DNA of 64,000 nt from a virus. Numbering within the stretch: the first letter of the stretch is position 1; each line of letters begins with the position of its first letter. The notes under the pieces are model-generated. The model worked only from the letters and a program-made list of their open reading frames with translations, searched no databases and was not told where the DNA came from. A program made the position numbers and the translations under genes. The DNA lies in the IMG/VR virus record IMGVR_UViG_3300009509_000001, positions 64,001 to 128,000 of that record; one strand, written 5' to 3'. Shown in pieces: positions 4,365 through 48,300 of this stretch.

Positions 4365-6224
4365 CTACATCATGCCACCCTGGGCCTTTGCCTGGGTGAG
4401 TGCTTGCGACTGCACTCCCTGCTCCATTTTCTGCAATTCCTCTTTGACGAGTGCGCTCATGGTCGGGTCCGTCTTGTTCAGGTTCGCGAGCTGACTCTGA
4501 CGGTCAGGTGCAGAGAATACCTGCTGCGCGAATGCGGCCGCATCGGCCTGCATCTGATCCAGTGTCGGTGGTCCGCCACCGCCAACCGGCATTCCGGGTG
4601 CGGGCGCTCCGCCGGCCGCAGGCATTACGCCGCCGGCCGCTGGTGGTGCCGCTTCGCCCTGCGGAAGCCCCATGTTGGCCTGCGCCGCGTTCGGCGGGAT
4701 CTGCCCGGGTGGCGCCATCTGGACGTATTCGTCCAGCATCTGGGCCTTGGACTCCTTGGCGTTCTCTTCGCGTGCGTCGTCGGCCATTTGGCGACGTTCC
4801 TCCTTGAGGCGCTCGCGCTCGATCTCCGGATCGATGTGGAAAGCTTTGAGGGCCGTGGTCTGCGAGACGACGCCGGCGCTGGCCAGATTCAATTTGACCT
4901 GCTTGGTGACGTCGTCTTCCGCGATCGACACATAGACCAGGCGGCCGTGAATCTCTTTCCAGCCGATCTGTTCGCTGCAGGCTTCGAGATACCAGTTTAT
5001 CCAGGTCGAGATCGGATCGGTGAAATGGCTCCAGCTGCGTTCGAAGGCTCTGAGGCCGATCGGTGGTCCGTTGACGGAAGCGAAGCTGCTGCGGTAGAAT
5101 TCGGTGGCCACGCCCATCGTGGTCAAAAGCTGGTCGTATCGGCGCTCGATCTGCTCGGCCGGGGTGATGCTCTGGCCTTCACCGCCGGCGATGTTGTAAT
5201 CGACGGGGGCCGGCAGCGTGTGCCAGCCGGTCGGATCGCTCTTGTGACGGCTGATCATGGCCTTCACGTTGCCCATGAAGTTCTGCATGCCGAAAGTCTG
5301 CAGCGGGTCGACGCCACCCTTGGTGGTGGCTGGCGTCAGATAACGGAGCGGGACGATCCAGTCGCTGGCGATGGCTTCGTCGAAACGCTCGAGCATCTGA
5401 AGCTGCACGACCTGACTGAAACAGCTCATGAACAGGGGTATTCCCCACCCGTCGTTAAGCCTGAATCCGCCTGCGGCCGGTTCGATCGAAAGGTGCTTGA
5501 AGGTCTCCGGGTCGAACCGAAGTCGTGTGCGGTCCTTGACAGCCTCGATGAACTCCCATGGAATGGAGCATAGCGACAAGTGGTCGCCCTTCTGGATCTT
5601 GCCGGCGCTTCGGCCGTCGATCCGCAGATAGAACTCGCGGCGGCCGCTCAGGCGGCAGAAATCGATCTCGACGTCGCGTGGGTCCCAGCGGATGACGACG
5701 AGCCCGCTCTTGTGGCTCTTGTCCTGTGAATCCTTGCGCTTATGTGCGCCGTGAAAGCCGCACGCTGGACAGGTGGACAGAAATTCATAGCCGGCCGACC
5801 ATTTGTAGTCGATGTCGGGCTTGAGTTTTTCGAGCACGCGGGTCATTCCGCACTCCGGACACTGGATGGACCGGTTGATGGGAAGCGTCAGACTGGTAAA
5901 GCTGTTGCCGAACCCGATAAGGTCGTCACCGACCAGACCGGCGTTCTCCAGGATGTTGAAGTCGCGATGGAGCTGGAGCGTGTAGTCCTTCCGCTCCGCG
6001 ACGCTCAGGTCCTCCCCATAGATCTCGAGTTCGTTCAGGAAATATCGAATGGACCGTTTGATGGCCATCGTATAGACGCCGTGACGATTCCACAGCCATT
6101 CCGCCCACTGAAGGACCTCGTCCATCGTGCGCGGGTATATGAGATTGGCGTAGGTTCTAAACGGATTCGCTACGCCCGTTGAGTCCAGGTCCCTTTTGTC
6201 GTATGGATTCAGCTCTATTGGCAT
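4365..6224 (-). CDS. Probable portal protein with Zn-ribbon insertion
   Basis: 619 aa; portal-like DDLIGFGNSF segment, IRWDPRDV, helical core, AGVVSQTTAL crown segment, P/Q/G-rich tail; CPEC and CPAC pair; AGGAG RBS. Confidence 0.6.
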   Translation of the reverse strand: MPIELNPYDKRDLDSTGVANPFRTYANLIYPRTMDEVLQWAEWLWNRHGVYTMAIKRSIRYFLNELEIYGEDLSVAERKDYTLQLHRDFNILENAGLVGDDLIGFGNSFTSLTLPINRSIQCPECGMTRVLEKLKPDIDYKWSAGYEFLSTCPACGFHGAHKRKDSQDKSHKSGLVVIRWDPRDVEIDFCRLSGRREFYLRIDGRSAGKIQKGDHLSLCSIPWEFIEAVKDRTRLRFDPETFKHLSIEPAAGGFRLNDGWGIPLFMSCFSQVVQLQMLERFDEAIASDWIVPLRYLTPATTKGGVDPLQTFGMQNFMGNVKAMISRHKSDPTGWHTLPAPVDYNIAGGEGQSITPAEQIERRYDQLLTTMGVATEFYRSSFASVNGPPIGLRAFERSWSHFTDPISTWINWYLEACSEQIGWKEIHGRLVYVSIAEDDVTKQVKLNLASAGVVSQTTALKAFHIDPEIERERLKEERRQMADDAREENAKESKAQMLDEYVQMAPPGQIPPNAAQANMGLPQGEAAPPAAGGVMPAAGGAPAPGMPVGGGGPPTLDQMQADAAAFAQQVFSAPDRQSQLANLNKTDPTMSALVKEELQKMEQGVQSQALTQAKAQGGMM

Positions 6225-17125: not shown

Positions 17126-18013
17126 TTAATAGGTATAATGGGAAAGTTCTGTCTCGTCGTCGTCTTCCGGGAACAGGTCGCGCGCCTTTTCGGTCCGGTT
17201 GTTGGCCTGCGCCCGCGCCGTCTCCAGCGTGCTCATCGCCCGGGTGAGGCTGTTCTGCGTCTGCTTCATCGTATTGATCAGCCGGTCCATTTCAGGATCC
17301 TGCACGATCTGGTCCTTGCGCTGCTTGAGCGAGTCCAGGGCCGTGCGGTGCGTCCACGACTGTCGACCGCTCACGTCGACGATCACGCCCTCGCTTCGCA
17401 GGAAGTCCCGGACGTCCTCCAGCTCCTTGATCTTCTTTTCGATGCGCTCCTGCCGCTCCCGTGTGGCCGAGAGCTCGTGGGCCAGACTGCTCCGCAGCAT
17501 TCTGCCGATGGTCAGCGCGTCCTGCTCCAGCTCCATCGACCGCTTGACCCTGGCGATCCGTTCCTCGCGCGTGAACTCCGACTTGTCCATGAGCCCCAGC
17601 TTGTTGAGGATCATACCTAAAAAATAGACGGGGCGATAGGTTACCGTGCGGTACGGCGCCTTTTTGACGGTGCGCATGCCCGTCCCGTTCTTGTGAACGT
17701 ATATGAGTCCGGCGTCTGCCGGCACTTCATCCTTCTTGATGACGCCGTGCGGGCACACGAAATACAGGTTGTTGCACATCTCGAGGTACTGGTGCCACTT
17801 CTCGTCCTGCACGAAGTCCTGGCGGCTCACCTTGATCTCGTAGCCCCATATCTGGATCTTGCTGTAGGCGGGCTTGATCGCGATCGCGTCGATGCGGCTC
17901 TGGTGCCCCAGGACGCTGCGGCCGTAGTCCGTCACCTCGTCGAAGAAGATGTGGCGCTGCGATTCCGCGCGCTTCATAAGCAGATGCCTGATGTCCCTTG
18001 CCGTGATGTTCAT
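17126..18013 (-). CDS. MmcB-like PD-(D/E)XK nuclease-fold protein
   Basis: RIDAIAI...GYEIKVSRQDF..DEKW..Y...CN.LYFVCP...AGLIYV. Confidence 0.8.
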   Translation of the reverse strand: MNITARDIRHLLMKRAESQRHIFFDEVTDYGRSVLGHQSRIDAIAIKPAYSKIQIWGYEIKVSRQDFVQDEKWHQYLEMCNNLYFVCPHGVIKKDEVPADAGLIYVHKNGTGMRTVKKAPYRTVTYRPVYFLGMILNKLGLMDKSEFTREERIARVKRSMELEQDALTIGRMLRSSLAHELSATRERQERIEKKIKELEDVRDFLRSEGVIVDVSGRQSWTHRTALDSLKQRKDQIVQDPEMDRLINTMKQTQNSLTRAMSTLETARAQANNRTEKARDLFPEDDDETELSHYTY

Positions 18014-19105: not shown

Positions 19106-19792
19106 TTAGGGTCTAAGGCGCCCTTCAACGCCGCGCTTCTCGCGGTCGCTCGTGCGCTTGTTCATCCACATGAGCGCCTCTTCCAGACGCATGATGGCCT
19201 GCTCGTTCTCCTTGCAGGCGTACTTGCCGGCCTGGAACGCCTGCATGCGGTCGATGATTATGGCGATCAGCGGCTCGTGCTGCAGACCGTTGACGCCGTT
19301 GTGCTTGACGGGGCCTTCCTGGAAGTGGATGCTCATCAGGCTGCGGCCGTGGTCCGTGTCGTCGTTGCTGAACACCTCGTACTGGTGGCACGCTCCGCCG
19401 GGACCCGGCCGGTCCATGCTGCAGACCTCAAGGGCCTTGTCGCTGTAGATCACCCGCACGTGCTCGGGCACGTCCACGATCTTCGGCGCTTCGGCCTTCG
19501 GCTTGTAGACCGGGGGCGTGAACGTGATCTCGTGGGCCGGATCGCCGTCGACGAATATGGTGAACGTCGTGTGGTCGATGTGCTGGGCCTTCTGCAGCGT
19601 ATGGTTGTCGAACACGTAGCCCAGGATGTGCGCGTAGTGCGGCGAATCCTGCAGCATGTCGTGGAACTCGTCGGGAACCCGGATGAACACCACCCGGTCC
19701 TGCCCGCGGTACTGCCGGAGCGCACGGCGCAGCGGGGTCGTGTCCACGCGCTCCAGGTAAAGCTCGTTCGGTGTCGGTATGTAGTCTGCCAT
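19106..19792 (-). CDS. tad1: Tad1-like immune-signal sponge with ~110-aa N-terminal extension
   Basis: GPGGACHQY, IHFQEGP, DRMQAFQAG, ENEQAI..LEEALMWMNKR..DR..R.V.G match the conserved blocks of Clostridium Tad1 as recalled. Confidence 0.85.
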   Translation of the reverse strand: MADYIPTPNELYLERVDTTPLRRALRQYRGQDRVVFIRVPDEFHDMLQDSPHYAHILGYVFDNHTLQKAQHIDHTTFTIFVDGDPAHEITFTPPVYKPKAEAPKIVDVPEHVRVIYSDKALEVCSMDRPGPGGACHQYEVFSNDDTDHGRSLMSIHFQEGPVKHNGVNGLQHEPLIAIIIDRMQAFQAGKYACKENEQAIMRLEEALMWMNKRTSDREKRGVEGRLRP

Positions 19793-19802
19793 TGTATCCT
19801 CC

Positions 19803-20564
19803 TTATGTCGATAAACTTATGTTGTCCGTCAGTGCGTTCTTCGCCGCATCCAGCTCGGCCTGAAGCTTCTTCCATTCGGCGCTCATGTCGAGTCCGAACT
19901 CGGCCAGGGCCGTCTGCTTGCTGACCACTCCGGCCTGCATGGCCTTCATGAACACGTTCGGCTGCGTGTTGGGCGTGCCCTGGAACTGTACCGGCTGTTT
20001 GAACTGATGCCACTTGCCGACGCCCTGTTTCTTCGGCGCCATGCGGCCCTGCGCATAGGCTTCGCGGATGACCATGTTGGCCAGGCGCACGTCTATCTTG
20101 CAGACGCGGACGACGTCCTGGCGCTGGAACCACGGACTCTTCTTGGACTTGCACCACTCGCGAATCTTCTCGATGTGAACGTCCAGCGACTGCTTGGACA
20201 CCACGGGCCATCTGGTCCACCGCCGAAACCGCGGTTTTTTATGCTCGCGAGTAATCCTGATGCCGCCGATCGCCTGCATGTCCATGCGGTCGACGTGGTT
20301 GCCCGGAAAGACCTGCATGCCCCAAAGGGTCGGCTCGGCCATGCCGTGACTTGTCTGATACTTCTGACTGCGCCGAAGCCCGTCGTAGGCCGCCGGCGGG
20401 ATCATCAGCGCCACGTTGTCGGCGTCGATGCTCGCCCGGTTCAACCCTGCCCAGGCGCCTGCGGCCGCCAGCTCCGAGAGCGTGATGCCCATGGCCTGGG
20501 CGGTCGCTTCGCGCTCCGACAGCTTCTTGGGGTCCTGCAGCATGTTCTGATTCTGGTACATCAT
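19803..20564 (-). CDS. Mosaic protein: capsid-like segment, wHTH, portal-like C-terminal segment
   Basis: PTLWGMQVF; RQDVV...GKWHQF; AGVVSKQTAL.EF.LD matches this window's portal. Confidence 0.65.
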   Translation of the reverse strand: MMYQNQNMLQDPKKLSEREATAQAMGITLSELAAAGAWAGLNRASIDADNVALMIPPAAYDGLRRSQKYQTSHGMAEPTLWGMQVFPGNHVDRMDMQAIGGIRITREHKKPRFRRWTRWPVVSKQSLDVHIEKIREWCKSKKSPWFQRQDVVRVCKIDVRLANMVIREAYAQGRMAPKKQGVGKWHQFKQPVQFQGTPNTQPNVFMKAMQAGVVSKQTALAEFGLDMSAEWKKLQAELDAAKNALTDNISLST

Positions 20565-21217
20565 GGTCTGAACGCCTCGCCGAACATGGTGTTCTTGTAG
20601 AATTCGTTCATCATCTGCTCGCCGAACTCCTTCGGTATGGTCGCGCTTCCGCTGCGGGCCATGTTCTTGAGCGTGGCGACGCGGCGCTTCCACCAGCGGC
20701 CCGACCGCTCGATCAGCTTGTAGCTCTCGGCGTCCTTGAGCATGCGATGGGCCTTGCTCTTCGTGACGTCGAACTCCTTCATGACCATGCCACGGTTGAT
20801 GTAGCTGCTGCCGGTCTGTTCCTCGCGCCGCTTCAGCATGTCCTCGATCTGCTCGTAGTGGAGCCAACGGGCGCCGACGTTGAAATTCACGGCCTTGACG
20901 GCGCTGGCGTTGGCTACGCTGGCGCCGACCTGCTCGCGCACCCGGAACTGCATCATGTATGCCTTGTCCTTGCCGACGGCCGGATCGACGTGGACGTCGA
21001 ACGGCTGGTTCTGGTACTCGCTCATGAAGCGCTTCCGGACATCGTCCTGCCGATGCGGTATGAGCGCTGCGTGCGGGTTATTACGCGGGATGGTTATCAC
21101 CACTTCCTGCGGCGGCACGGCCTTGAGCCGGCCGTTCTTGTCGATGGTCACGAAGCCGTCGCCGTACAGCAGGGCGTCGCGCGTCGCCTTCTCCATTTCG
21201 TGTTCGAACTCTGTCAT
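20561..21217 (-). CDS. Mosaic protein: portal-, terminase- and capsid-like segments plus wHTH
   Basis: DALLYGDGF; FMSEYQNQP; VDPAVGKD; RGMVM...GRWWKR; GSATIPKEF. Confidence 0.65.
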   Translation of the reverse strand: MTEFEHEMEKATRDALLYGDGFVTIDKNGRLKAVPPQEVVITIPRNNPHAALIPHRQDDVRKRFMSEYQNQPFDVHVDPAVGKDKAYMMQFRVREQVGASVANASAVKAVNFNVGARWLHYEQIEDMLKRREEQTGSSYINRGMVMKEFDVTKSKAHRMLKDAESYKLIERSGRWWKRRVATLKNMARSGSATIPKEFGEQMMNEFYKNTMFGEAFRP

Positions 21218-21697
21218 TTATCGTACCTCGAATTTAACGTCTATTACATGGGCCGGCTGTTGAACCGTCACGTCGACCAGCAGCCTGTTCGGATCGTTCG
21301 GGTCCACGCGCACCTCGTCCACGTCGAAGATCTTGCGGGCGAACCCGTCTTCGCGCTGGCGCATGCGCAGGTAGTCGTTGGACGCCTTGGCCAGTGCCTT
21401 GGGCTCGGTCGTCAGCTCGTACCATTTACCGACGCGCTTGGCCTTGAGCATGGTCACCGCCCATTTCAGGATCTTGGCCGCCTCCGCCTCCGTCAGATTC
21501 GCGTGACGAAGCAGGTCGCTGCGCCGCACGTAGAACTTTCCGTTCTCGTCCGGGTTCTTGCCGGCCGTGGCCTTGGCCACCACGGAGTCCCATACGGGTC
21601 CGTAGGCCAGGCCGTCCTCGAGATCGTCGAGCAATCCCTTGATGATCGCCTGGTTCACTCTGGTCAGCTTCGAAACCGTTTCGTCGAATGCTTTCAT
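21218..21697 (-). CDS. wHTH protein with sheath-like C-terminal segment
   Basis: RRSDLL...GKWYEL; VDPNDPNRLLVDV. Confidence 0.6.
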   Translation of the reverse strand: MKAFDETVSKLTRVNQAIIKGLLDDLEDGLAYGPVWDSVVAKATAGKNPDENGKFYVRRSDLLRHANLTEAEAAKILKWAVTMLKAKRVGKWYELTTEPKALAKASNDYLRMRQREDGFARKIFDVDEVRVDPNDPNRLLVDVTVQQPAHVIDVKFEVR

Positions 21698-22155
21698 GTC
21701 GTCTCCGGCGCCTTGTGTTTGTACGGATGTCTGTCCGGTAGTTGGTCGTACAGCCCATGTCGATGGGCCATGTAGCCTTCCACCTTCTCGCGGATGGCGG
21801 TCTGCCGGTCCTTGAACCGGTACCAGCAGCCGTTGGCGTGCCGGAGCATGCCGCCCCTGATCAGGGTCTCGAGCGCCTCTTCGGCTTTCGGCCCGAACAG
21901 ACGGAAGAGCTCCGACCGGCAGGTGTAGACGCAGCCCGACTCGTCCGGCGTCTTCCGCTCCAGGAACTCGGCGAGCTTAGTGCGGTAGTGCGTGAACGTC
22001 TGCGGCCTCGGGATGTCCTCGTGCACGACGGCAAACCCGTTCGTGATGGCCTTCACGCTTATGACTCCGTCCTCCGGGTCCTTGAAGCTGACGAACTCGC
22101 TGTCCATCACTTGCGGAACGACGGGCGACGGGAAGCTCATGCCGTAGGTGTTCAC
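21694..22155 (-). CDS. wHTH protein
   Basis: RSELF...LIRGGML....GCWYRF. Confidence 0.6.
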   Translation of the reverse strand: MNTYGMSFPSPVVPQVMDSEFVSFKDPEDGVISVKAITNGFAVVHEDIPRPQTFTHYRTKLAEFLERKTPDESGCVYTCRSELFRLFGPKAEEALETLIRGGMLRHANGCWYRFKDRQTAIREKVEGYMAHRHGLYDQLPDRHPYKHKAPETT

Positions 22156-22418
22156 AGAATGTCCTCGTTGGTCAGGGCCTTACGCACTTCGGCCAACAGC
22201 CCTTCCTGGTTCACGTAATGTCGTTTGCTGTGCTTGCCGCTGGCCCACCGGCCGTTGACGCGCAGTCTGTATTTGTAATCGTCGGCGGGATCGTTGGTCC
22301 ACTGGGATTTGCGGAACACTTCGATCCTGCATGAGCCTTCCCGCCCACGCAACAAAGTCAGGTTGCCCACGGGTAGTCGTTTCTCAGCCATTTGTCGGTA
22401 CCTTTGCTTCTTGGCCAT
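22152..22418 (-). CDS. Small basic hypothetical protein
   Basis: First ORF after the 22.5 kb intergenic region. Confidence 0.6.
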   Translation of the reverse strand: MAKKQRYRQMAEKRLPVGNLTLLRGREGSCRIEVFRKSQWTNDPADDYKYRLRVNGRWASGKHSKRHYVNQEGLLAEVRKALTNEDIL

Positions 22419-22521
22419 GGCATTTCACGGGCGGTTCGCCTGAGCGCCATTGCAGCTTCGTTTACGGCTAATATGCGGCGTTACAGCGGCAACTTCAAGC
22501 GCTGCCGGAAAAAAGGCATGA

Positions 22522-22548
22522 AAAAAGCCGCCGGTCGACCCGGCGGCC
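22522..22548 (-). terminator. Rho-independent terminator
   Basis: GCCGCCGG GTCGA CCGGCGGC TTTTTT on minus strand. Confidence 0.85.
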
Positions 22549-22836: not shown

Positions 22837-23283
22837 TTACAGAAACTTCTCCAGCTCGTCGTTGAGCTTCAGATAGCCTTCAGGGGCTTTGTCGCCCTTG
22901 AAAATCAATTCGACCTTTGCCTTCGTGTTGCGGCTGAACATGCCGCGGCGCATTTCGATGCTCATCTCGTGCTTGCACTCGTCGTCGTCGCACTCGTGTT
23001 CGTCCAGGCCACCGATCTCCACGTCGAACTCCATGCGCATCTTGTCGAGGCGAATGCCGCTGGCTGGCATGAGCGCAAGCATCGGCACTTCGATCTCTCG
23101 CATGGCTCCATCGCCGCCCGGCACCGGAACCTGCAGCTTGAGGGTCTTGACCTTTCCGTCCTCGTCGATGTGCTGCTTGATCGTATCAAGATGCTGGTTG
23201 CGCACCAGTTCCTGGGCCTTGATCACCGCGTTCTGCAGCGCCCGTATAAGTTTGCTCAGTCCCGTTACTCGTTTGTGTGCCAT
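22837..23283 (-). CDS. DUF2589-family protein (short type)
   Basis: LIRALQNAVIKAQ...IEVPMLALMP...LDKMRMEFDV...KVELIFKG..PEG. Confidence 0.8.
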   Translation of the reverse strand: MAHKRVTGLSKLIRALQNAVIKAQELVRNQHLDTIKQHIDEDGKVKTLKLQVPVPGGDGAMREIEVPMLALMPASGIRLDKMRMEFDVEIGGLDEHECDDDECKHEMSIEMRRGMFSRNTKAKVELIFKGDKAPEGYLKLNDELEKFL

Positions 23284-35891: not shown

Positions 35892-37868
35892 CTATTTAGG
35901 TGTCATGGCGTTCATCTCGTCGTACCAGCTCTGGTTGGAAGCCGCCTGTCGGGCCTTCTCGGCCTGGTTGCGCAGCCTTGCGGCCCGCACGATCTCCTGG
36001 ATGCGTTCACCGAGGCTGGTGTCGGCACTCATGCTCTCGGCCCACTTGTTGCCGGCGGTCAGCTCGCCAAGCGTGTTGACGCTCTCGACGCCGCCGCGGA
36101 GTACGTTGCCGAACACCGGCACGCCCTCGCTGAAGTTTCGAACGAACCCGGTCGCACCGCCCCTCTTGCTGGTCTGCCGAAGGATGTCGCCGATCTCCGA
36201 CGGTTTGAGGGCCTCGGCCTCGAGCTTCGCACGGGCCATAAGGTCCTTGTACTCGGCATACACAGCGTCTCGTTCGTACCCGCTCATTTCATCAAAGTTC
36301 TTGCCTTCCGCGCCCACCATGCGCTTGGCGTGATGGGTGAGCAGATGGTGCGCCCTCCCGACGTCGCGCTTGGACTTCAGGGCTGCCACCGCCTTGTAGA
36401 AATCGTTCAGCTGCACCCGCTGCTCGAGCGGGCTTCCCTTGGTCGCCAGCGCATGGCCATAGGACAGTCCGATGCGCGCCGGGTTGTAGACCTGCATGGT
36501 CGTGCCAAGCGTGCCGAGTCCCATGACCTTCAATGCGTCGTTGCGCTTCTGGTTCCACTCGTCGTCCGTCATCTCGCCGGCCTGGTACTTCTTGAAATCG
36601 TCTTCCAGCATCGCTGCGGCTTCGGGTATGGCCTCCGCCATCTGCCGGGCGTTCTGCAGCTCGACCGGCGCCTTCTGCTCCAGATTGGATACGGCGGCAT
36701 TGAGCATCTTGTCGCCCTGACGGCCACGGTCGCCCTGCGTGACAAGGTTGGCAAAGTCCTCGAGCTCGATGGTCTTCTCGCCGGTCTTGGGATCGGTGGC
36801 CAGCATCTGGTAGGATTCCACGATGTTGTCGGCGATCTCAATGGGTATAAGGAGCTTGCCGGCCAGTTTCTCGGCACCGGGGCGCATCGCCGTGGGGCCG
36901 AAGCGTGCGGCCAGGTTGACGGGCAGCCCCAGCTGTCCGGCGATGATACCGGCCCGGTTCTCGGGATCGCTGGTCATCTGCGACCATAGATTGCTGACCT
37001 TCTCCACCGGCCCGCCGGCGCTTCCGCTTATGGGAATGCCCTCGGGAGTCGTCGTATAGGTTCCGTAGTCCTTCCAGCCGTGAGTGCCTTCCTTGCCCTC
37101 GACGATGTCGGCCATGGCATTGGTGATCCGGTTCGGGTGCATCGGGCTTATCTCGCCACTGCCGACCATACTGAAAATGGATCGCTCCGCCCGCTGGATG
37201 TCCTGGGGCGTCGGGATCTTGCCGGTCTTGTACTTGTGGACCACGGCGTAGTCGGTGAGCAGCTGGCGGCGCAGTTCGGGCGGCAGGCTGACGGTGGCAC
37301 CGCTGCCGACCGTGCCCTTGGCTTCGTAGGGCGCCACCTTCATGATGTCGCGCAAGGCCCCGCTCACTTCCTGAACGTCCTCGGGCTTCATCGTTTCGAA
37401 CTTGAGGTTCTCGTAGAGCGGCGCGTCCTCCTGCTGGAGCTGCTTGACGTCGGCCTGGTACTGGGCCTCGTCCTGCTTCTGAATGATGTCGCCCCGCTTG
37501 ACCCGCCGCTGCGGCTTGCCGGTACGGGGATCGATCGGAGTCGGCGGGGCCGCAACCTGTGGCTGCTGTGGCGTCGGCGGCTGTCCTGGCGTCGGCGGCG
37601 GCTGCGGCGTCGGCGGCGGTTTCGGGGAAGCCGCGCTTGTCGGCGGCTGTTTGCCGAAGCCCTGGCTCAGCGTGTTCTTGAACCGGTCGACCATCTTCGG
37701 GTCGTCCCATGCCTGGTAGCCCAGACCGGCTGCGGCGCCGAGCAGTGTGCCAGCACCGCTTACGCGGCCACGCAACGCCCATTCACCGAGGGTACCGGCT
37801 CCTGCGCCGATGCCGCCGGCGATCAACGCCTTTACCAGGTCGTCGCCTTTAAGTCGTGGTTTCGCCAA
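35892..37868 (-). CDS. Large putative virion/ejection protein
   Basis: TTG start after GGGAGG RBS; N-terminal Gly zipper, Pro-rich linker, helical body. Confidence 0.75.
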   Translation of the reverse strand: MAKPRLKGDDLVKALIAGGIGAGAGTLGEWALRGRVSGAGTLLGAAAGLGYQAWDDPKMVDRFKNTLSQGFGKQPPTSAASPKPPPTPQPPPTPGQPPTPQQPQVAAPPTPIDPRTGKPQRRVKRGDIIQKQDEAQYQADVKQLQQEDAPLYENLKFETMKPEDVQEVSGALRDIMKVAPYEAKGTVGSGATVSLPPELRRQLLTDYAVVHKYKTGKIPTPQDIQRAERSIFSMVGSGEISPMHPNRITNAMADIVEGKEGTHGWKDYGTYTTTPEGIPISGSAGGPVEKVSNLWSQMTSDPENRAGIIAGQLGLPVNLAARFGPTAMRPGAEKLAGKLLIPIEIADNIVESYQMLATDPKTGEKTIELEDFANLVTQGDRGRQGDKMLNAAVSNLEQKAPVELQNARQMAEAIPEAAAMLEDDFKKYQAGEMTDDEWNQKRNDALKVMGLGTLGTTMQVYNPARIGLSYGHALATKGSPLEQRVQLNDFYKAVAALKSKRDVGRAHHLLTHHAKRMVGAEGKNFDEMSGYERDAVYAEYKDLMARAKLEAEALKPSEIGDILRQTSKRGGATGFVRNFSEGVPVFGNVLRGGVESVNTLGELTAGNKWAESMSADTSLGERIQEIVRAARLRNQAEKARQAASNQSWYDEMNAMTPK

Positions 37869-38898
37869 CTGTTCCTCCCTTGCCGATGTTCCATTCACGG
37901 CCGTAGGTGCTGCCGAGGCCCGCACCGGCCAATGCACCGCCGCCACCGCCGAGCAGTATGCCCAGCATGTAATCGGCCGCATCGGGGTTGGTTTTCATAA
38001 GTTTGGTGATGAGCATGCCCAAGCCGGCTCCGAGGGGTACGCCGGCCGCAGCGCCGACAAGGCCCTTGCTGCCGCGGTCAACCTTCTCGTTCAAAGCCTT
38101 CAGATGTTCGCCGACTTCGCCAACGCTCTTCTTGGTGGAACCCAGGTCCTCGCGGATCTGCTGGGTGCCTTCCTGGATGTCGCCCTTGACCCACGCCTCC
38201 TTGCGCATCATCTCGATCGTGTGGTCGATCAGCTCGAACATATTTCCAGGAACTCCTGGATTTGCGGTCTTCTCGATGCTGGCGTTCGGGGTCTTGCCAC
38301 GCTTGGCGAACGGCGTGGTGCCGACGCCCTGGTCGGCGTCCATGACCTGGAAGCTGTGGGGGTTCGATCCCTCGGTCTTCGAGTTACGGATCTTCTCGGC
38401 GAGCTGGCCGCGTGCATGCTTGCGGCAGGCGGCGGCCTTGATGACCCCGGCGACCTTGTGCATGACCCGCTGCTTGACGCCGGGCTCGTACTCGGCGTTC
38501 TTGATCAGATGCTCGGCGAGTAAACCGGTGCCGGCGGTCTTCTTCAGACTCGGGTACTTGGCGTGGACCTTGGCCCGGACCTGTGCCTTCTCTTCGTCGG
38601 TGCCGTGCATGCCCACCAGGCGAAGGGCGGAGCGTGCATGCTCGATGTCGTGTATCGGGTAGTTGCCGCTCTTCTTCTTTTCCTTGGCGTTCTCAGCCTT
38701 TCCGGGGATGGCGAAATTCTTCGTGGCGATGTGGCTGCGCTGCTTGGCCTTGAGGGTCGCTGACTTCTTGTGGCCCTTCTTCTTCTGCTTGTTGGCGGTG
38801 GCGTAGAAGATCTGTTCGCCCTTCTTGTCGCCGTACTGCTTCTTCATCTGGGCCATGACCTCTTCGCCCTTGCCGTCGTAGTATTTGGATAGTGGCAT
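37849..38898 (-). CDS. Putative virion protein with small basic domains and C-terminal Gly zipper
   Basis: MKKQYGDKKGEQIFYA, YPIHDIEHARSAL, LKKTAG, IEKTAN. Confidence 0.8.
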   Translation of the reverse strand: MPLSKYYDGKGEEVMAQMKKQYGDKKGEQIFYATANKQKKKGHKKSATLKAKQRSHIATKNFAIPGKAENAKEKKKSGNYPIHDIEHARSALRLVGMHGTDEEKAQVRAKVHAKYPSLKKTAGTGLLAEHLIKNAEYEPGVKQRVMHKVAGVIKAAACRKHARGQLAEKIRNSKTEGSNPHSFQVMDADQGVGTTPFAKRGKTPNASIEKTANPGVPGNMFELIDHTIEMMRKEAWVKGDIQEGTQQIREDLGSTKKSVGEVGEHLKALNEKVDRGSKGLVGAAAGVPLGAGLGMLITKLMKTNPDAADYMLGILLGGGGGALAGAGLGSTYGREWNIGKGGTVGETTT

Positions 38899-38909
38899 GT
38901 GTGCCCTCC

Positions 38910-39233
38910 TTAACGGGGTATGCGCCGTTGCACCAGCTCCTGCCGGGGCTTGAAGTCACGGTCCACGTAACCGCCCCGATTGTAGCTGGCTTTGCTGACG
39001 TTCATCGGCTGCTTGCTGGCCACGTTGGCTGGGTCGATCGGTGCACCCTTGATCTCGCGGCTTCCGGTCGGGCTCTGGCCACGCTTCATCCGTGCCAGGT
39101 TCTGTTGACGGAGCTTCTCGGCTGCCGCCTTCTTCGCTTGGGCCGCCCGCTGCATCTCCATCATCTGTTGCCGGGCGGCGGCGTTGCGATCGAAAGCCGT
39201 CTTGCGGATCAACGCGTCTTTGAGATGTCCCAT
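38910..39233 (-). CDS. Small basic putative virion protein (KTA leader)
   Basis: MGHLKDALIRKTAF; AGGAGG RBS. Confidence 0.8.
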   Translation of the reverse strand: MGHLKDALIRKTAFDRNAAARQQMMEMQRAAQAKKAAAEKLRQQNLARMKRGQSPTGSREIKGAPIDPANVASKQPMNVSKASYNRGGYVDRDFKPRQELVQRRIPR

Positions 39234-39242
39234 GGTCGCCTC

Positions 39243-40517
39243 CTACTTCTTAGTGGCGTCGTACTTGTGCTGGGCCACGATGGCCTTGCGGGCACCAGGG
39301 CTCACGCGGCCTTTGAAGTTGACGTTCGGGTACTTCTTCTTGGCGGCCTTCAGGCCCATGTTCTCGGCCTTGGTCTCAGCCTGCTCGACCTTCAGGTTCT
39401 TGCGGCCGGCCGCGGCGTCCGTCTGTTCACCGACGGCGACTGCGGCCTGCTTCGTGAGCAGGGCTGCCACCAGGTCGTTGACGACTTCATGCTTGACGCT
39501 TGCGGCCTTGCTGAGGTCTGCCCGCTCGTTGGCACGGGGCCTGGCCGGCGGGAACGTGCTCGGTGTCAATGACGGGGCGCCCAGTCCCGGCTTGGGCGGA
39601 TACTTCTTGCGGATCATCTCGTAAATCTTGCGCTTTTTGCTCTCCGGGCTTTCCTGCACGGCGCTTGGCTGAGTGGCGCCCGGCATTCCCAGCGGGGCGA
39701 TGGGCTTGGGCATCGTCTGTACGCCGGCGGCGACTCCGCCTGCGTTGCCGCCCTGCCGCACGGATTCTAAAATGCCTTTGCCGATTCTGCTGAGATTTCC
39801 GGATCTGGCAGTTTTACGGATAAGTGCTTCAGTTAACAGTCCCATTGGTGTGTCTCCTTGTTGTTCTGCGGTCTTCGGCAGCTGGCGGCCTTCGCTCATC
39901 TGCTGTGCAAGTATCTTCCAGTCTTCGGGCGTCATGGTTTCGCGCCGTGCCATCCAGCGGCCGAGGGCGCTGCCCATACCGGTACCGAGTGCGGCACCGC
40001 CCAGTCCACCGGCCACTCCGCCGATTGCGGCGGCGGTACCCTTGGCGTCGTCACTGGCCTTGTTGAACAGGGCGAGCATGATCGCCGCACCCATGCCGGC
40101 GCCGGTGGCTCCGCCGACCAGACCGCCGCTTGCGCCGCCCAGTCCCTGGAGTGCAGCGGACTCGAGCCGGCTGCTGCCACGGGCGGGTCGGGCCAAACCA
40201 TGAGCGGCACCACCCACGAACGGGATGGTCTGGATCAAATCTGTCTTGTCGTCGAAGGCGGCGGCTTTCATGATCACCGGGCCACCCTTCTCGTTGGCGG
40301 CGTCAAGCGCTGCCTGAGCCTGGGACTTCAGCTTCTCGGCCTCAAGTTCCTTGGAATGCGTGTCGACGTACCACTGGGCAGTGCGCCGCACATGCTCCGG
40401 CGTATTCGGATCGTCGAGTACGGCCTGGGCCTTTTCGATCTCGGCGGCCTTGTCGACCTTGAACATATCCATGAGTCCGGCAGTCTTGCGGACGAGGGCA
40501 TTTGCGAGTAGCGGCAT
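39243..40517 (-). CDS. Putative virion protein; in-frame tandem of two KTA-leader units (second ATG at 39845)
   Basis: MPLLANALVRKTAG and internal AAGGAG-RBS MGLLTEALIRKTAR. Confidence 0.75.
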   Translation of the reverse strand: MPLLANALVRKTAGLMDMFKVDKAAEIEKAQAVLDDPNTPEHVRRTAQWYVDTHSKELEAEKLKSQAQAALDAANEKGGPVIMKAAAFDDKTDLIQTIPFVGGAAHGLARPARGSSRLESAALQGLGGASGGLVGGATGAGMGAAIMLALFNKASDDAKGTAAAIGGVAGGLGGAALGTGMGSALGRWMARRETMTPEDWKILAQQMSEGRQLPKTAEQQGDTPMGLLTEALIRKTARSGNLSRIGKGILESVRQGGNAGGVAAGVQTMPKPIAPLGMPGATQPSAVQESPESKKRKIYEMIRKKYPPKPGLGAPSLTPSTFPPARPRANERADLSKAASVKHEVVNDLVAALLTKQAAVAVGEQTDAAAGRKNLKVEQAETKAENMGLKAAKKKYPNVNFKGRVSPGARKAIVAQHKYDATKK

Positions 40518-40740
40518 ATCTGGATCTCCTGTATGATTCGGTGTTAGTCGCTTCCTGTTAATATACTCCACCGGTTTCGCGCACGCAAGCAACGACCCCG
40601 GTCTGCGGATGGCACGGCACACGCCTCGTCGGGCAGGCCCCCTTACGGGGCCTCGATGGTTTGCATGCGCTTACACGTTGTCCGTGTGCAATCCGTTGCC
40701 CCGGAGGGGCACCTGTTCGTTCCGGAAAATGTCCTGGATT

Positions 40741-43566
40741 TCATTTGCCGACCGCCCGCTTCACCATGGTCTTGATCTTGCCGGTGTTTTTCGTGACGCC
40801 CTTGGCCTTGTCGTCGTATATGGCGGTGCAATACATGTCCTTGACGCAGGTGATGGGCAGTACCTGGCCAATGTGGGCCATGCACCACTTGTCGATGTGG
40901 TAGCGGGCCTTCCCGTCGTCGCCGCTTGCCCGGGCAGTCAGGATCTTTACCTTCTTGCCGTCGGCGAGCCATGCCTTTACCCGGTCGACCATGGGCTTGA
41001 TCGGTGCGCCGATGTGGCCACGGCCCTTCCATTCGGTATATCGGGCCAGCGTGCCGTCAAGGTCCACGCCGATCCATTCCTTTGCCGGGTCGTATTTGAG
41101 GGCTTTCTTGTGCAGGTCGTATCGTTGTGCGGCCGCCCGCAGCTCTTCCTGCGGTATGCCGACGTTGTGTTCATTGAGCTTGGGCCGTACGGCGTCGGCC
41201 GGTACCCGGAACATACCGCACAGCTCGCGCAGCTTGGCCTCCAGCTGGTCGGCGTCCATCGCCGCGGTCTTCCGCAGCCGTCGACTCAATGCCAGTAAAG
41301 CGGGTGCCGCCAGTGCACCGGTCGCTCCGCCGGCCAAGGCGCCGATAAGCTTGTCGTCGGCGAGCCATGCGCCGGCCGCTCCGCCCAGGCCCAGCCCGGC
41401 CAATGCCGCAGTGCCGTAGCCGCCCGGTGCCTTGGCCTTCGGCTGTTGCGGCTGCGGTTGTGGCCGTGGCGTCTGTGTGACCTGCGGTTCGACGCCTGTT
41501 TCGGGTTCGCCGTTATCGCGCATGAGCAATGCCGTGCCGCCGGCGGTGGCCGCAGTCGCCGCAGTGGCGATCGCCGCCTTCTTGCCGGTCGACATCTTGC
41601 CGGTCGCCGGCGGGTCGGTGATTCTTGCCGTGGGCTTGGCCGGCGGTGGATCGGTGATGCGTGCCGTGGACTTGGCGAAAGGCTCCGGTGCCGGCAGGGG
41701 CTCGAACCACGACCTGTTGTGCGTCGGGTCCGCGTTCCAGTCGTCGCCGTAGCCCATGACCGTTCTTGAATTTACGTTGCGCCCCTTTCCGGTCGCTTCC
41801 TGAAACTTCAGCGCCGTATCCATGTATTCGCCGGCGGCCCGCGAAAGCTTGTCGGAGTCTACGTTGCCCCTGAGCGACGGGTCTTTGCGCAGGCGATCCT
41901 TTATCGCCATGCTGACGTCGTACGGCCCGCGGCCGGACGTGTACGTGTGTCCCGGGTGGACGCGATCGATCAGCTTTTGATGGAGCCGCTGGGCGCGCGG
42001 ACCCTCCAAGTACCGCATCGCGTCCATGTACGGCATTTCGCCGGCCTTCTCGTACATGCGCTTCAGCACGCCGAAAGCGCGGGTCGCGTCCGACTCGAAC
42101 TTGAACGCCGGCGTCTTGGCCGCAGCGGTCTTCGGCAGCAGGTTGCCGACCACCACGAGCCGGTCGCGAAGGCTCGGATTCGCCATGAGCCTGAAATGGG
42201 CGTCCGCCTGCTTCTTCAGCTGCTTGGCCTTGGCGCTGGTGGTCGCCGCCACCGGACCGCCGGCCGGCAACAGCTTCTTGATGCGCAGCGCCAGGAGCTT
42301 GCGGCCGTTGATGGTGGGCTGGCCGTTCTCGTCGGTTCCTATACTTTCAACCTTCACAGGCTTGTTCTTGAATCTGCCTACGAGAACGGTGTCGCCCATC
42401 TCTATGTCGAGCACGATCTTCGCGATCTTGCGCAGCCGCGGGTCGGCCAACCGCTGCTTCAGCCGGATCTCCCGGTCGATCGCCCTGATGTCCATGTGGT
42501 AAGTTTTTATCTCAGCCTGCTTCGCCAGGGGCTTGAGCTCTCCCTTGGTCGGGCCGTCGCTCATGGCCCATTCCTTGAATTCGGCCCACGGCAGTTCGAC
42601 CACGGCGCCGTCGCGGTCCCAGCCGTCCTCGTAGTTCTGCCGGTAGGCTTGCACCGCCTGCTGCTTCGTGACGTAGCCGATCATGCACTTGTGCTCGTCG
42701 AACTTGCCGTCGGCGTCCAGCTGGTTGATCACGTACACGCTCTCGGCGTCCCATATGGTCTCGTCGTGGGGTATGCCCGGATTGATGAAGACGTCGAGAT
42801 GATCCTTGTCGTAGCCCCTGCTGCCGCGGATGTAGCCGTAGTCGTCCCACATGGTCTGGCTCCATTCGTTACCGTCGTCGTCCACTCCGCTCCTGACGGA
42901 CTTGAACGGGTTCTCGATGCTGATGTCCAGGCCGTCGATGGTTACGTGCGCCTTCTTGTAGTTCTCGGCCTTGATCTGGGCCTCGGTCGGCTGTAGCTCC
43001 ATGTCCTGGCCCTTGGCCACCCCATGCTCGACCTCCGCGGCGGTCTTGGCCAGGCGCGGTATGAGCAGCGTACTGTAGCGGTCGGCCGGGTTGCTCCACC
43101 GGATGGCGCTGATCGGAAACTTCTGGCCGCTCACGAAATTGGCGAGCCGTGCGTACTTGGCGGGGTCCACGTCCTTCTTCAGGTAGGCGACGGTGACGTG
43201 CGGCCGGTAGGTCTTGTGCGTTTCGCCCGGCATCCTGACGCCGGCGCGCACCGCCTTGTTCAATGCATGCAGGTCCGGACTGTCGACGTCGAACTTCAGC
43301 ACCTTGTAGTCGCCCTGGTCGAAGTGACTGAGCCCGCCGACGGTACCCTGCCCCTGCAGGATTTCCTTGATCGCCTCCTTCGTGGAGCGCGGGTCGTCTT
43401 CTTCATGCCCGTAGGCAAGCGTGACGTGTGGATGCTTCTCGAGGCCGAACCCGTCCTCGTCGTACAAATCCTCCTTGGCGATGGCGCGCTGGATCATAGC
43501 GATCCGAAGCGCCACGCTCCTGGGCATGTCGATGCCCATCCAACCGTATGATTTTTCTTTAGCCAT
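40741..43566 (-). CDS. Polyvalent protein: 2H phosphoesterase (Acb1-like), InPase-like domain, small beta domain, TM/Gly zipper, HAD phosphatase
   Basis: Two HxT motifs (PHVTL, PHVTV); PTEAQ..AENYKK..ISIENP...YGYI...D.DHLDVF...FDEHK; DLDGT...LTAR...IYDD. Confidence 0.85.
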   Translation of the reverse strand: MAKEKSYGWMGIDMPRSVALRIAMIQRAIAKEDLYDEDGFGLEKHPHVTLAYGHEEDDPRSTKEAIKEILQGQGTVGGLSHFDQGDYKVLKFDVDSPDLHALNKAVRAGVRMPGETHKTYRPHVTVAYLKKDVDPAKYARLANFVSGQKFPISAIRWSNPADRYSTLLIPRLAKTAAEVEHGVAKGQDMELQPTEAQIKAENYKKAHVTIDGLDISIENPFKSVRSGVDDDGNEWSQTMWDDYGYIRGSRGYDKDHLDVFINPGIPHDETIWDAESVYVINQLDADGKFDEHKCMIGYVTKQQAVQAYRQNYEDGWDRDGAVVELPWAEFKEWAMSDGPTKGELKPLAKQAEIKTYHMDIRAIDREIRLKQRLADPRLRKIAKIVLDIEMGDTVLVGRFKNKPVKVESIGTDENGQPTINGRKLLALRIKKLLPAGGPVAATTSAKAKQLKKQADAHFRLMANPSLRDRLVVVGNLLPKTAAAKTPAFKFESDATRAFGVLKRMYEKAGEMPYMDAMRYLEGPRAQRLHQKLIDRVHPGHTYTSGRGPYDVSMAIKDRLRKDPSLRGNVDSDKLSRAAGEYMDTALKFQEATGKGRNVNSRTVMGYGDDWNADPTHNRSWFEPLPAPEPFAKSTARITDPPPAKPTARITDPPATGKMSTGKKAAIATAATAATAGGTALLMRDNGEPETGVEPQVTQTPRPQPQPQQPKAKAPGGYGTAALAGLGLGGAAGAWLADDKLIGALAGGATGALAAPALLALSRRLRKTAAMDADQLEAKLRELCGMFRVPADAVRPKLNEHNVGIPQEELRAAAQRYDLHKKALKYDPAKEWIGVDLDGTLARYTEWKGRGHIGAPIKPMVDRVKAWLADGKKVKILTARASGDDGKARYHIDKWCMAHIGQVLPITCVKDMYCTAIYDDKAKGVTKNTGKIKTMVKRAVGK

Positions 43567-45350: not shown

Positions 45351-48300
45351 GATTGGTTCTCCAGTTGATGCATGGCCAGCCGCAGGCCGACCCAATGCTG
45401 TTTCAATGTGTGTGGCATGACCTCGCCCCAGAGCCAGGGGTCGTAGTCCGTCCAGTTGGCGCCCAGGAACTGCTCGCCGTTGGTGGCGAGCCAGTGGCTG
45501 AACTCGTCCTTGTTGGCCGAGGCGGCTTTGGCCTCGCGCACCAGGTCGAGATCCACGTGCTCGTCGTACTCCAGCAGATCCTTGACGTTCTCGTCGATGC
45601 GGCGCTCGCACTCGTTCGTGTCCCAGTCCATCCAGCGACGGCCGCTGCCGTCGGGACTTGCCTGACACTTCTCGTGCAGATAGCTGATGCCGCACTTGGC
45701 CCAGCCGTCGAGCCGCATGTTGTCATACACGCCGTAGATGGCTTCGCCGCAGTCGCCGCGCACGATCAGGCTGTTGCCGACCGCCATGAAGATCATGAGG
45801 TAGCTGCTGCTCGTGGGCCGGCCCCAGATCAGGTAGTCGATCTGGTTGCCGTTGTCGACCTGGCCGGCGTGGCGCTTGGCCAGGTGGTCCTTGAAGTCGT
45901 TGGCGATCATCTGAACGCCGCGGTCTTCGTGGTGATGGGGGAACAACGCTTTAAGATCCACGTTCGGCCTCCTTCGACGGGAAGGTCAGTGCGTGCGACT
46001 CCATGGCGTCCTTCACCTCGTACTTCTTGCCGATGAAGGTGCTTCCGTGGTCGTCGTCGAACCAGCCCTCGAACTCGCGACTGCTCACGCGTTCGATCGT
46101 GGCCTTGCGGCCGTTGAACACGTACTCGGTCTTCGGACCCTTCTTCGGCTGTGCCGGGAAGATGTGGGCCAGACAGTGTTCGTCGATCTTGGTCACGGGC
46201 TCCGGGTTGTACATGGTCGGATGCTCTTCAGTGAACTTCCGGGCCTTGGCGCGCTGCCGGATGAGGCTGCGGCCCGTGGCGTAGAAGTTGGCGTTGAGTA
46301 TGGCCTCCATCCGGTCGATCTCGATCGCCATCTGGTTGAAGAGGTGCTTGTCCTTCTCGGTCTCGCACTTGGCCGCCAGGTCGTCGATCTCAAGCTGCAC
46401 GAGGGCGCCGATCTCGTGCATGAGCGTCGCCAGATACATGATGGCGTCGGTCTTGGATTCGTTCTCGATCGAGTCCGATGCCCAGTCGAAGGCGTTGCAC
46501 GGGCACTCGGCCGTGCAGTCGGCGGGGCAGTCCAATGCCTCCTGGTCGTCGCGCAGCTTGAGAATGCGGGTCTTGAACTCCGCGGCTTCCTTGCCGCCCT
46601 CGTCTTCGTCCGGGAACCAGGTCCCGATGTCTTCGAGTATGTTGTACAGGGTCTCGATGGTCTCTGCTCTATTCATCGATGGTTCCTCCATTTCGTTTGA
46701 TTACGTCAATGAGACCTTCCTCGGTTTCGACCGACAGGCGGCCGTGATTCTCGGAGATCTCCTTGAATATGTTCTGAAGCGCGGTCAACATGTCGGCCTC
46801 GGCGTCGGGCCGATCGACCGGGCGGTGGCCCGCGCGCCGCATCATTCTGACCCAGCGCTCGCGCAGCTCCTCGCAGTATTGGGCGGTGTCCACGCGTTCG
46901 CAGCAGCCGCCGTTCAGCATCAGGTAGGTGTTGCCGTCGCAACGCTCCTCGATGCGGTATCCTTTTTCTTCGTCAGCCATTGGTGTTCTCCATTAGTTCA
47001 TTATTGCTTCGAACAGGCTCTTGGCCCAGTCCGCTACTTGGGATGCGGCTGCCACCAGGACGAGCAGCACCCCCACGCAGCAGCAACAGCCTGCTCCGCC
47101 GTCATCGCTGCCGCTGTCGTTGACATGTGAGCCTTTGACGTTGACGCGTCCAGGCTTTCTGTAGCCGTCAAGCTGCCGTGGGAATCGCCGGGTGTGTGGT
47201 TTACGGTCGTGTCCCATGTCACTGCGGCTCCAGTTCGGACGCGGCGATCACGTCCTCGACGGTTATGAGTTGATCGTCTTCAACCGGGTCCCGCTCCGGG
47301 AATCTCCAGTAGGAGATGGGTCCCGGGAACCACGGATCCGTGCCATAGTAGAATCGAAAGCCCTTGACCGGGTCGACGCCGTTGATGTAGACGCCTGCCC
47401 AACGGTCTTTCGAATCCTTCGCCACCATGGCCTCGCAATGCCCCTTCGGGCCTGCGCGGAGCATCCGCACCAGATGGCTCATGGCCTTGTCATAGCGCTC
47501 CTGTTGTTCCTTGTTCATTGTTCGAGCTCCAGGAACGCGTTTACGGTTTCGATCCAGCACTGCCTGCAGTCGGCGTCCATGTCGCACGCGCGCTTCAGGC
47601 CGAACTTGGTGTGGGACCACGGCTTCAGGTCCTCCGGCGGGCAGTCGCCGATCGGCGCGTGTGCGTCGGCCAGGCGGTCGACCACCTCGGGAAGTTCGTG
47701 CACGATCACCCGGAATCTGTCCATGTTCATTTTGCTCAGCTCTTTAACGTGGGTCTGCGCCCACAGCTGGCCGTCCTGATCCATGAACACCGGGAAGTCG
47801 TCGTACAGCCGATCCTCTTCGATGTGCCATATGCTGAATTTCATAACGTGAAGATTATCTCCTCGATGTCTTTGCGCAGGGCCATGGTGTAGCCACGGTC
47901 GATGGCTTCCTTGGCCTTTGCGCTCTTGAACGGTTTCTTCTTGTCGGCCAGCCGCTCCGCGAGCATGTGCACGTCCGCGGTTGTCTGGGTGCTCTCGACT
48001 ACGATGTCGTATCCGTCGAGCTCCCGGTTTATCAGGAACAGGATGTTCCTGGGGAGCCCCTGGACTTCGACGTGACTTACGATTACGGTCTGCATACTCA
48101 GTCTCCGAACGCTTCGGGGTTCTTGCGGCGCCACCAGCCCTCGACCTTGATCAGGCAGGGCAGGCCCGGCAGTTGTCCGACGGGTGGATCGGGCATGGCC
48201 CCCTTCATGATGTAGGGGGTCACGCTCTTCGGAATCCATATCTGGACCTTGGTGGACTCGATCTCCATCAGCCGCGCCTTTTCGCTTTCGCGGATAAGGA

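Follow-up and report, generated by a model that had tools for sequence, protein, structure and literature searches.

Winged-helix paralogues bearing segments related to virion proteins form a conserved phage operon with a Tad1 homologue

Positions 19803-21697 of the DNA analyzed here form the central part of a phage accessory operon that is conserved and consists of a leader gene, a fast-evolving array of winged helix-turn-helix (wHTH) genes and a gene for a putative Tad1 sponge. The window, the whole stretch of 64,000 nucleotides to which positions refer unless marked as genome positions, covers bases 64001-128000 of a virus record that is complete (194,576 bp, with direct terminal repeats), has a G+C content of 59% and carries nearly all of its genes on the minus strand. 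This phage is designated G000. Its operon contains the following genes, lengths and protein positions being given in amino acid residues (aa):

22152-22418, minus strand: leader gene, 88 aa, without a wHTH; heads the operon
21694-22155, minus strand: P0004, 153 aa; first wHTH paralogue, directly upstream of P0003
21218-21697, minus strand: P0003, 159 aa; wHTH paralogue with its core at about aa 55-95 (21413-21535)
20561-21217, minus strand: P0002, 218 aa; wHTH paralogue with its core at about aa 121-180 (20678-20857)
19803-20564, minus strand: P0001, 253 aa; conserved N-terminal domain at about aa 25-120, wHTH core at about aa 127-190 (19995-20186), then a tail
19106-19792, minus strand: P0005, 228 aa; Tad1 homologue directly downstream of P0001

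The genes overlap or adjoin one another and are thus tightly coupled, with the Tad1 gene as the last. An initial annotation, made by a model from the letters alone, had proposed that the three open reading frames (ORFs) at 19803-20564, 20561-21217 and 21218-21697 encode mosaics of structural-protein fragments on winged-helix cores. All three ORFs are real genes on the minus strand. P0001-P0005 share one coding signature (G+C of 0.82-0.89 at third and 0.36-0.42 at second codon positions), a GAGG/GGAG ribosome-binding site precedes each start, and the same gene lengths were called independently on two other assemblies of the locus.

P0001-P0004 are paralogues (P0003 against P0004, E 3e-6) and align over about 65 core residues; an invariant G-x-W wing motif closes this core, and a common helix comes after it. 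An AlphaFold2 model of the P0003 core predicts a strand-helix-helix-wing arrangement (strand 55-58, helices 59-65 and 70-82, strands 86-89 and 92-95; pLDDT 72-81), and the top Foldseek matches of P0003 are almost all wHTH proteins (Sso10a, IclR, MarR, TubR, ArsR, CRP), the best at E 0.018 and none significant. The Atlas model of P0001 resembles wHTH clusters with TM scores of 0.3-0.36; the AlphaFold2 single-sequence model of P0002 (pLDDT 39) was too low for use. The core gave no match to a helix-turn-helix family of Pfam and no match to a PDB profile. On the paralogue alignment, the P0003 model and these wHTH-dominated matches (E >= 0.018), which support the winged-helix cores of the initial annotation, we accept a winged helix as the predicted core fold and assign it to no named wHTH family. 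The cores of two P0001-type homologues match the lambda Ren-like family phrog_142 weakly (E 3e-4 and 8e-4), but these are two of six family members, and P0001 itself has no match; the likeness to lambda Ren-like exclusion proteins is a lead, not membership.

Outside the core, each of the four paralogues carries a module of 30-50 residues that is related, as judged by sequence comparison, to one of the phage's own virion proteins; each is a chimera of a wHTH core and one such module. The modules and the genes of their relatives in the virion are as follows:

21242-21388, minus strand: P0003 aa 104-152, copy of the N-terminal arm (N-arm) found in the major capsid protein (MCP aa 30-71)
21706-21801, minus strand: P0004 aa 119-150, copy of the end motif present in every LamG repeat of P0009 and P0010
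19845-19955, minus strand: P0001 aa 204-240, copy of the crown helix found in the portal protein (aa 443-483)
20870-20974, minus strand: P0002 aa 82-116, probable, though not certain, relative of the C-terminal MCP segment aa 277-313
4365-6224, minus strand: portal gene P0006; the segment of the type found in the P0001 tail is aa 443-483 (4776-4898)
Genome 46244-47212, outside the window: MCP gene P0008, 322 aa
Genome 37049-41999, outside the window: P0009 and P0010, virion proteins with LamG repeats (phrog_10356)

The source proteins are themselves identifiable. P0008 matches phrog_2522 (E 5.1e-7) and has full-length orthologues with 50-83% identity in five IMG/VR contigs, and P0006 matches phrog_2739 (E 1.9e-4) and has orthologues with 31-50% identity in four contigs. 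An all-against-all BLAST comparison of the 194-kb genome yielded about six real paralogous relationships at E 1e-3, two of which are P0003 with the MCP and P0004 with the fibre. In the first, P0003 aa 107-152 is 50% identical to MCP aa 33-71 (E 1.6e-6 in whole-genome BLAST); in the second, P0004 aa 119-153 matches five repeat ends in P0009 and P0010 (E 2e-8 to 4e-6).

We next built an MCP profile (A1) and a portal profile (A3) from relatives, compared them with the proteins of the operon using hhalign, and obtained an empirical null by treating 142 further proteins of this genome, 80-300 aa long, in the same way. P0003 aa 104-138 aligned with positions 30-62 of the MCP profile (95% probability, E 2.7e-8), P0002 aa 82-113 with positions 277-308 of the MCP profile (P 1.4e-3), and P0001 aa 208-239 with positions 447-478 of the portal profile (P 1.4e-4). 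MCP profile scores were 57.3 for P0003 and 29.6 for P0002, compared to 22.4 for the best of the 142 controls; the portal profile gave P0001 a score of 39.4, the best control reaching 36.7 and the next 27.4. P0003, P0002 and P0001 thus each rank first of 143, because they lie above every control score. The best portal control is a protein of about 240 aa (genome 129617-130348, minus strand, a short way beyond the window) that matches portal aa 90-165, the portal zinc ribbon, and may be another zinc ribbon.

Module families gathered from relatives gave stronger matches in profile-profile comparisons. The N-arm modules match the MCP with E 6.9e-9, the LamG modules match the fibre repeat ends with E 4.4e-16 (their orthologues also match phrog_10356), and a fifth type found in relatives, the mid-segment module, matches MCP aa 96-146 with E 1.2e-15. 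The P0001 family profile aligned with the portal profile with 90.6% probability and E 1.3e-6. For P0002, the MCP is the top non-self BLAST match of aa 82-116 (E 0.07), and the direct profile match of the segment shared by P0002 and its orthologue P0018 to the MCP is modest (4.7e-3). The same segment matches the clearer C-terminal modules of the homologous arrays on contigs L020 and L023 (P 3.5e-4), which in turn match MCP aa 285-309 (E 1.2e-5), and this transitivity argues for an MCP origin of P0002 aa 82-116. We consider the module anatomy very probably correct for P0003, P0004 and P0001 and probably correct for P0002. We also considered that an entire duplicated structural module had decayed, and rejected this because the fragments are not collinear with their sources and no further homology was found in other frames.

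A skeptical reader may ask whether these are chance matches of short motifs. Several of the motifs picked out by the initial annotation do lie at chance level, as does, taken alone, the single pair of P0001 and the portal (pairwise E 0.015; genome-wide E 4.4 over all ORFs). Against chance stand profile E-values of 1e-5 to 1e-16, first rank against 142 controls, and independent homologues that match the same source segments. We give chance next to no probability and, judging from these profile comparisons, regard it as already refuted for P0003, P0004 and P0001.

The architecture put forward initially, structural-protein fragments on wHTH cores beside tad1, agrees with these results, but most of its fragment labels (terminase, sheath and two capsid motifs) do not. 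The reported 13 of 27 identities between the P0001 C-terminus and the portal are exact (aa 211-237, 19854-19934, against portal aa 450-476, 4797-4877) and are backed by the family profile (P 1.4e-4, E 1.3e-6). The "sheath-like" piece of P0003 (aa 131-143) is virion-derived in that it lies inside the MCP N-arm copy; the sheath label itself fails, Phage_sheath_1 being not detectable in the genome. In P0002, MCP-related sequence occurs at aa 82-116 and not at the "capsid-like" motif that had been named (aa 190-198), which is the post-wing helix common to all four paralogues. The "capsid-like" P0001 aa 54-85 gave E 0.7 as a single sequence and 0.55 with a family profile, and the "terminase-like" P0002 aa 64-72 and 77-84 matched nothing, Terminase_6N being not detectable in the genome. 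The "portal-like" P0002 aa 14-22 yielded weak generic portal matches and none to the phage's own portal; it falls within a weak generic portal-like N-terminal motif (aa 8-44, 21086-21196, minus strand) that is conserved in P0018 and matches phrog_27442, a family label without a function (E 8.9e-8), phrog_12 (E 0.01) and PF04860 (E 0.16).

Megablast and tblastn searches of 50,697 phage records with the locus and with P0001-P0003 returned no match, and word-seeded searches of 5.8 billion proteins returned only the proteins themselves. When the core alignment (A4) was used for an exhaustive HMMER search of 1.84 billion representatives, the four proteins themselves and nine small proteins taken as relatives (E 4e-8 to 1.4e-4) were recovered; four large multi-stretch matches were set aside as probable false positives. 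Homologous tandem arrays occur in at least five other uncultured phages (L020, L021/L022, L023/L024, L025, L026 and L027), all on metagenomic contigs with a G+C content of 55-59% where measured, and contain 3-6 wHTH paralogues each. The arrays in L020, L021, L023, L026 and L027 begin with clear homologues of the leader gene (79-116 aa), which may be part of the system. The fullest array, on L023, starts with such a leader gene without a wHTH and continues as follows:

L023 8562-8918: wHTH with MCP C-terminal module
L023 8915-9286: wHTH with MCP mid-segment module
L023 9283-9618: wHTH with LamG motif
L023 9618-10004: wHTH with MCP N-arm module
L023 10001-10729: N-terminal domain, wHTH and portal-crown tail
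L023 after 10729: a 97-aa gene, then the last gene, an HTH_3 domain fused to a Tad1 domain

The closest synteny to the window is found in L026, where genes of the N-arm type, the P0002 type and the P0001 type are followed by Tad1 and an MmcB-like gene. Every homologue, scored singly against profiles of the G000 clade, matches the same source segment as its counterpart in G000. The position of the module varies: the MCP-like piece precedes the core in P0002 and P0018 and follows it in L020 and L023. In P0024 (L027 10001-10765) a portal-crown-like segment is placed before, not after, the wHTH core, which shows that modules are shuffled within the family. The check proposed with the initial annotation, whether homologues in related phages swap fragments around a constant wHTH, thus came out in its favour, with five module types at varying positions relative to the core. 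On contig L019, a partial ORF (2-211) upstream of a P0003 homologue has a strand-rich end that resembles P0003 aa 139-159; the contig ends are adaptor-like.

We then analyzed the divergence of the modules. The copies are old, with a synonymous divergence (dS) of 0.8-2.2 between copy and source gene, and comparisons of module and core between orthologues were made at saturated dS. For one pair of N-arm orthologues, identity is 0.71 in the module and 0.41 in the core, with omega values of 0.07 and 0.44, respectively; further N-arm pairs gave 0.47 against 0.29 and 0.52 against 0.25, a mid-segment pair 0.56 against 0.38, and a LamG pair 0.54 against 0.23. On the contrary, the module of an MCP C-terminal pair is less conserved than its core (0.61 against 0.77). 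In most orthologue pairs the module is conserved at least as well as the wHTH core, and six of the nine residues invariant in six N-arm-type orthologues fall within the module. These patterns argue that purifying selection retains the modules. Identity of the copies falls from the phage's own protein to a near relative and then to a distant relative, but the same gradient would be expected of any match that had been chosen by its likeness to the own protein, and it is therefore not used as evidence. For the P0003 tail, overall identity to different MCPs does not single out the phage's own MCP.

These data bear on a plainer interpretation, in which the proteins are Aca-like (anti-CRISPR-associated) or early transcription regulators and the virion-derived tails are functionless recombination debris. 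HTH genes are common companions of anti-defence genes, relatives contain free ORFs made of MCP fragments (in G002 beside a homing endonuclease of the HNH type and with tandem repeats), and tests for retention of invariant residues in the copies were not significant, all of which are compatible with such debris. Nevertheless, neutral debris is argued against by the retention of the modules at saturated dS and by the location of six of nine invariant residues in the N-arm module. Orthologues keep the same module types at saturated synonymous divergence, no part of the protein is better conserved than the module in the N-arm, mid-segment and LamG types, and all detectable fragments of G000 virion genes are concentrated in this one paralogue family. 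We regard plain regulators with functionless tails as distinctly unlikely.

The free fragments occur in more distant relatives that share the MCP. In G004, two adjacent ORFs of 87 and 59 aa (L017 7587-8014, equivalent to L012 1178-1644) correspond to MCP aa 98-154 and aa 30-74 and match the MCP of that phage with E 1.8e-5 and 1.9e-11. The two ORFs, which lack a wHTH, are next to a deaminase-like gene at a distance of 120 kb from the MCP gene. In G002 (L018 2816-4946), and also in G003, an HNH-endonuclease-like gene lies directly 3' of the MCP gene and is followed by small ORFs that are copies of MCP aa 103-156 with internal tandem repeats and look like homing or recombination debris. Since MCP pieces occur as free small ORFs in G002, G003 and G004, the clade generates MCP fragments readily, probably by recombination. 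The wHTH family is where such fragments became fixed.

The Tad1 neighbour named by the initial annotation is confirmed by solved Tad1 chains: P0005 aa 124-225 (19118-19423) matches 8kbb_A with E 9.3e-23 and 7uav_A with E 7.2e-18, and the protein matches phrog_2428 with E 4.6e-37. P0005 scores 17 bits against the Pfam family Acb2_Tad1_hairpin (PF24729), below its gathering cut-off of 27, and a precomputed table lists the family. These matches make P0005 a true homologue of Tad1. A Tad1 domain is present in the array-ending gene in all four cases checked (G000, L026, L020 and L023), and that of the relatives is supported by a match with 46% identity over 108 aa (E 3e-32). Likeness to the Tad1 sponge concerns this neighbour only, through its homologous domain at the operon end. 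P0005 differs from that sponge by an extra N-terminal extension of about 120 aa; in L020 (11004-11663) and L023 (11025-11675) the Tad1 domain is instead fused to an N-terminal HTH_3 domain (Xre-type), and the extensions of 85-120 aa in G000 and L026 are other than HTH_3.

Further features flank the operon in the window:

22526-22548, minus strand: intrinsic-terminator-like hairpin (9 pairs, 8 of them G-C, with a T-run), strong; ends the upstream unit and precedes the operon
22470-22498, minus strand: possible sigma-70-type promoter (4 of 6 and 4 of 6 hexamer matches, 17-nucleotide spacer), weak, found by eye and below the scanner threshold
22837-23283, minus strand: DUF2589 gene upstream of the operon
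17126-18013, minus strand: MmcB-like gene (PF06319) after Tad1, with the same synteny in L026
15549-16844, minus strand: thymidylate-synthase gene with an N-terminal extension, also downstream of Tad1

A DUF2589 gene also lies upstream of the L020 and L027 arrays, so the wider neighbourhood is syntenic. Elsewhere in the genome, the strongest pair of small-gene paralogues is 131492-132238 and 148080-148856 (both minus strand; 48% identity over 128 aa, E 4e-41).

The array lies among early-type accessory genes, with the MCP gene about 37 kb and the portal gene 13.5 kb away. This setting matters for the view that the modules serve assembly coupling or packaging, by docking the wHTH proteins on partners of the MCP N-arm or P-domain, the portal crown and the fibre. 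The docking partner would be a scaffold, the prohead protease, a chaperone or the growing particle, and the outcome regulation by assembly state or co-injection from virions. In HK97-fold capsids, the MCP pieces (N-arm, spine-helix region and C-terminal strands) and the portal crown would be elements of contacts or of the interior. Selection acts on the modules, and the predicted wHTH fold suggests DNA binding. All of these points fit this view. Yet the genes sit with Tad1 and other early-type genes, far from both the MCP and the portal genes, a single targeting tag would be enough whereas five module types are maintained, and a LamG fibre motif is ill-suited to interior docking. We think a role in assembly unlikely. 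The same contact regions could make dominant-negative inhibitors of capsid or portal assembly, weapons against related co-infecting phages, which would also suit a family that evolves fast and is tandemly duplicated. The copies are, however, at least as like the phage's own MCP and portal as those of relatives and should then poison self-assembly too, and linkage to Tad1 is left unexplained; this proposal we consider very unlikely.

We tentatively favour another reading, held with appreciably less than even confidence, in which the modules are mimics that compete for host immune sensors of capsid, portal or fibre proteins. Each module would be a competitor of the virion protein itself for any factor that binds the segment in question, likely targets being host sensors such as Thoeris ThsB, CBASS (cyclic-oligonucleotide-based anti-phage signalling system) cyclases or sensors of the Avs, CapRel and Lit types. 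A fragment would occupy the sensor without completing an active complex, so that the array would blunt the sensing step and Tad1 would mop up signal still made. Autoregulation through DNA binding may be a further contribution of the wHTH core, as in Acr-Aca fusions (anti-CRISPR proteins joined to Aca regulators), or the core may act as a dimerising scaffold. Taken further, the array may be a battery of trigger mimics, each displaying one peptide, and would form with Tad1 a two-layer counter-defence drawn from the phage's own structural genes, a scheme that we hold to be possible but on the whole somewhat doubtful.

Several observations favour host sensors as the targets: the conserved linkage to Tad1; features of an arms race, namely orphan status, tandem duplication and module shuffling; the retention of five epitope types where one docking tag would suffice; and the many other sensors that read core virion proteins, as collected in a 2026 review (PMC13728456). 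In the Thoeris system, ThsB1/ThsB2 is activated by binding the MCP monomer through two separate loops, the E-loop and the P-loop (PMC12578639); since two loops are used, a partial binder could in principle stall the complex. The candidates have the feature expected of decoys in being homologous to virion proteins of kinds sensed by immunity.

Other points weigh against mimicry. Portal-type modules are about as conserved as the core or less, never better, and residues invariant in the MCP and portal families are not preferentially retained in the copies (Fisher p 0.13, 0.68 and 0.34). Contigs G001-G005 share the MCP yet are without the wHTH family: P0001, P0002, P0005, the MmcB-like gene and the wHTH profile were not found on the available contigs of these MCP-related phages. 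Many sensors read folded shapes that linear pieces of 30-50 residues may fail to reproduce, a true mimic might activate a sensor instead of blocking it, and a decoy has no obvious need of a DNA-binding fold. We leave the remaining probability to an explanation outside those set out here.

Known systems offer partial parallels. HTH domains are fused or adjacent to anti-defence modules in Acr-Aca fusions and Aca regulators, for example AcrIIA1. The likeness consists of a small DNA-binding-type domain with a variable module, encoded in one operon together with an anti-defence gene of a proven class, and the Aca-type feature of HTH-type proteins that share an operon with an anti-defence gene (Tad1) is present here. 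The differences are a winged helix without a Pfam family, 3-6 paralogues per array, and modules copied from virion proteins. Among capsid-sensing defences, Lit senses the 29-residue Gol region of T4 gp23 and CapRel senses the MCP. In these systems, as in Thoeris, defined parts of the MCP are recognised by immunity, which makes fragment mimics conceivable; they consist of host sensors and their triggers, unlike the phage-encoded fragments described here. DSAD1 is described as a phage inhibitor of DSR2, a sensor of the tail tube (PMC11087589). The likeness lies in a phage protein directed against a virion-sensing defence, and the difference in that the present candidates are themselves homologous to virion proteins. 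DSAD1 is, to our knowledge, not derived from the tube protein. Full-text literature searches returned no account of decoys that bear such fragments, none of this architecture, and none of a phage-encoded fragment of a virion protein that blocks such sensors. We rate the array as a new kind of phage accessory system.

Many bacterial defences fire on capsid, portal or tail proteins. The operon offers a compact, conserved and testable candidate in this context, in which a single scaffold bears five module types and is genetically linked to a sponge of a proven kind. Should the modules bind sensors, they would show which short virion regions immunity reads and provide probes for undiscovered sensors. 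Binding to assembly factors would instead reveal a new connection of early gene products with the assembly of particles. In both cases, phages repeatedly exapt fragments of their own structural genes into an accessory protein family.

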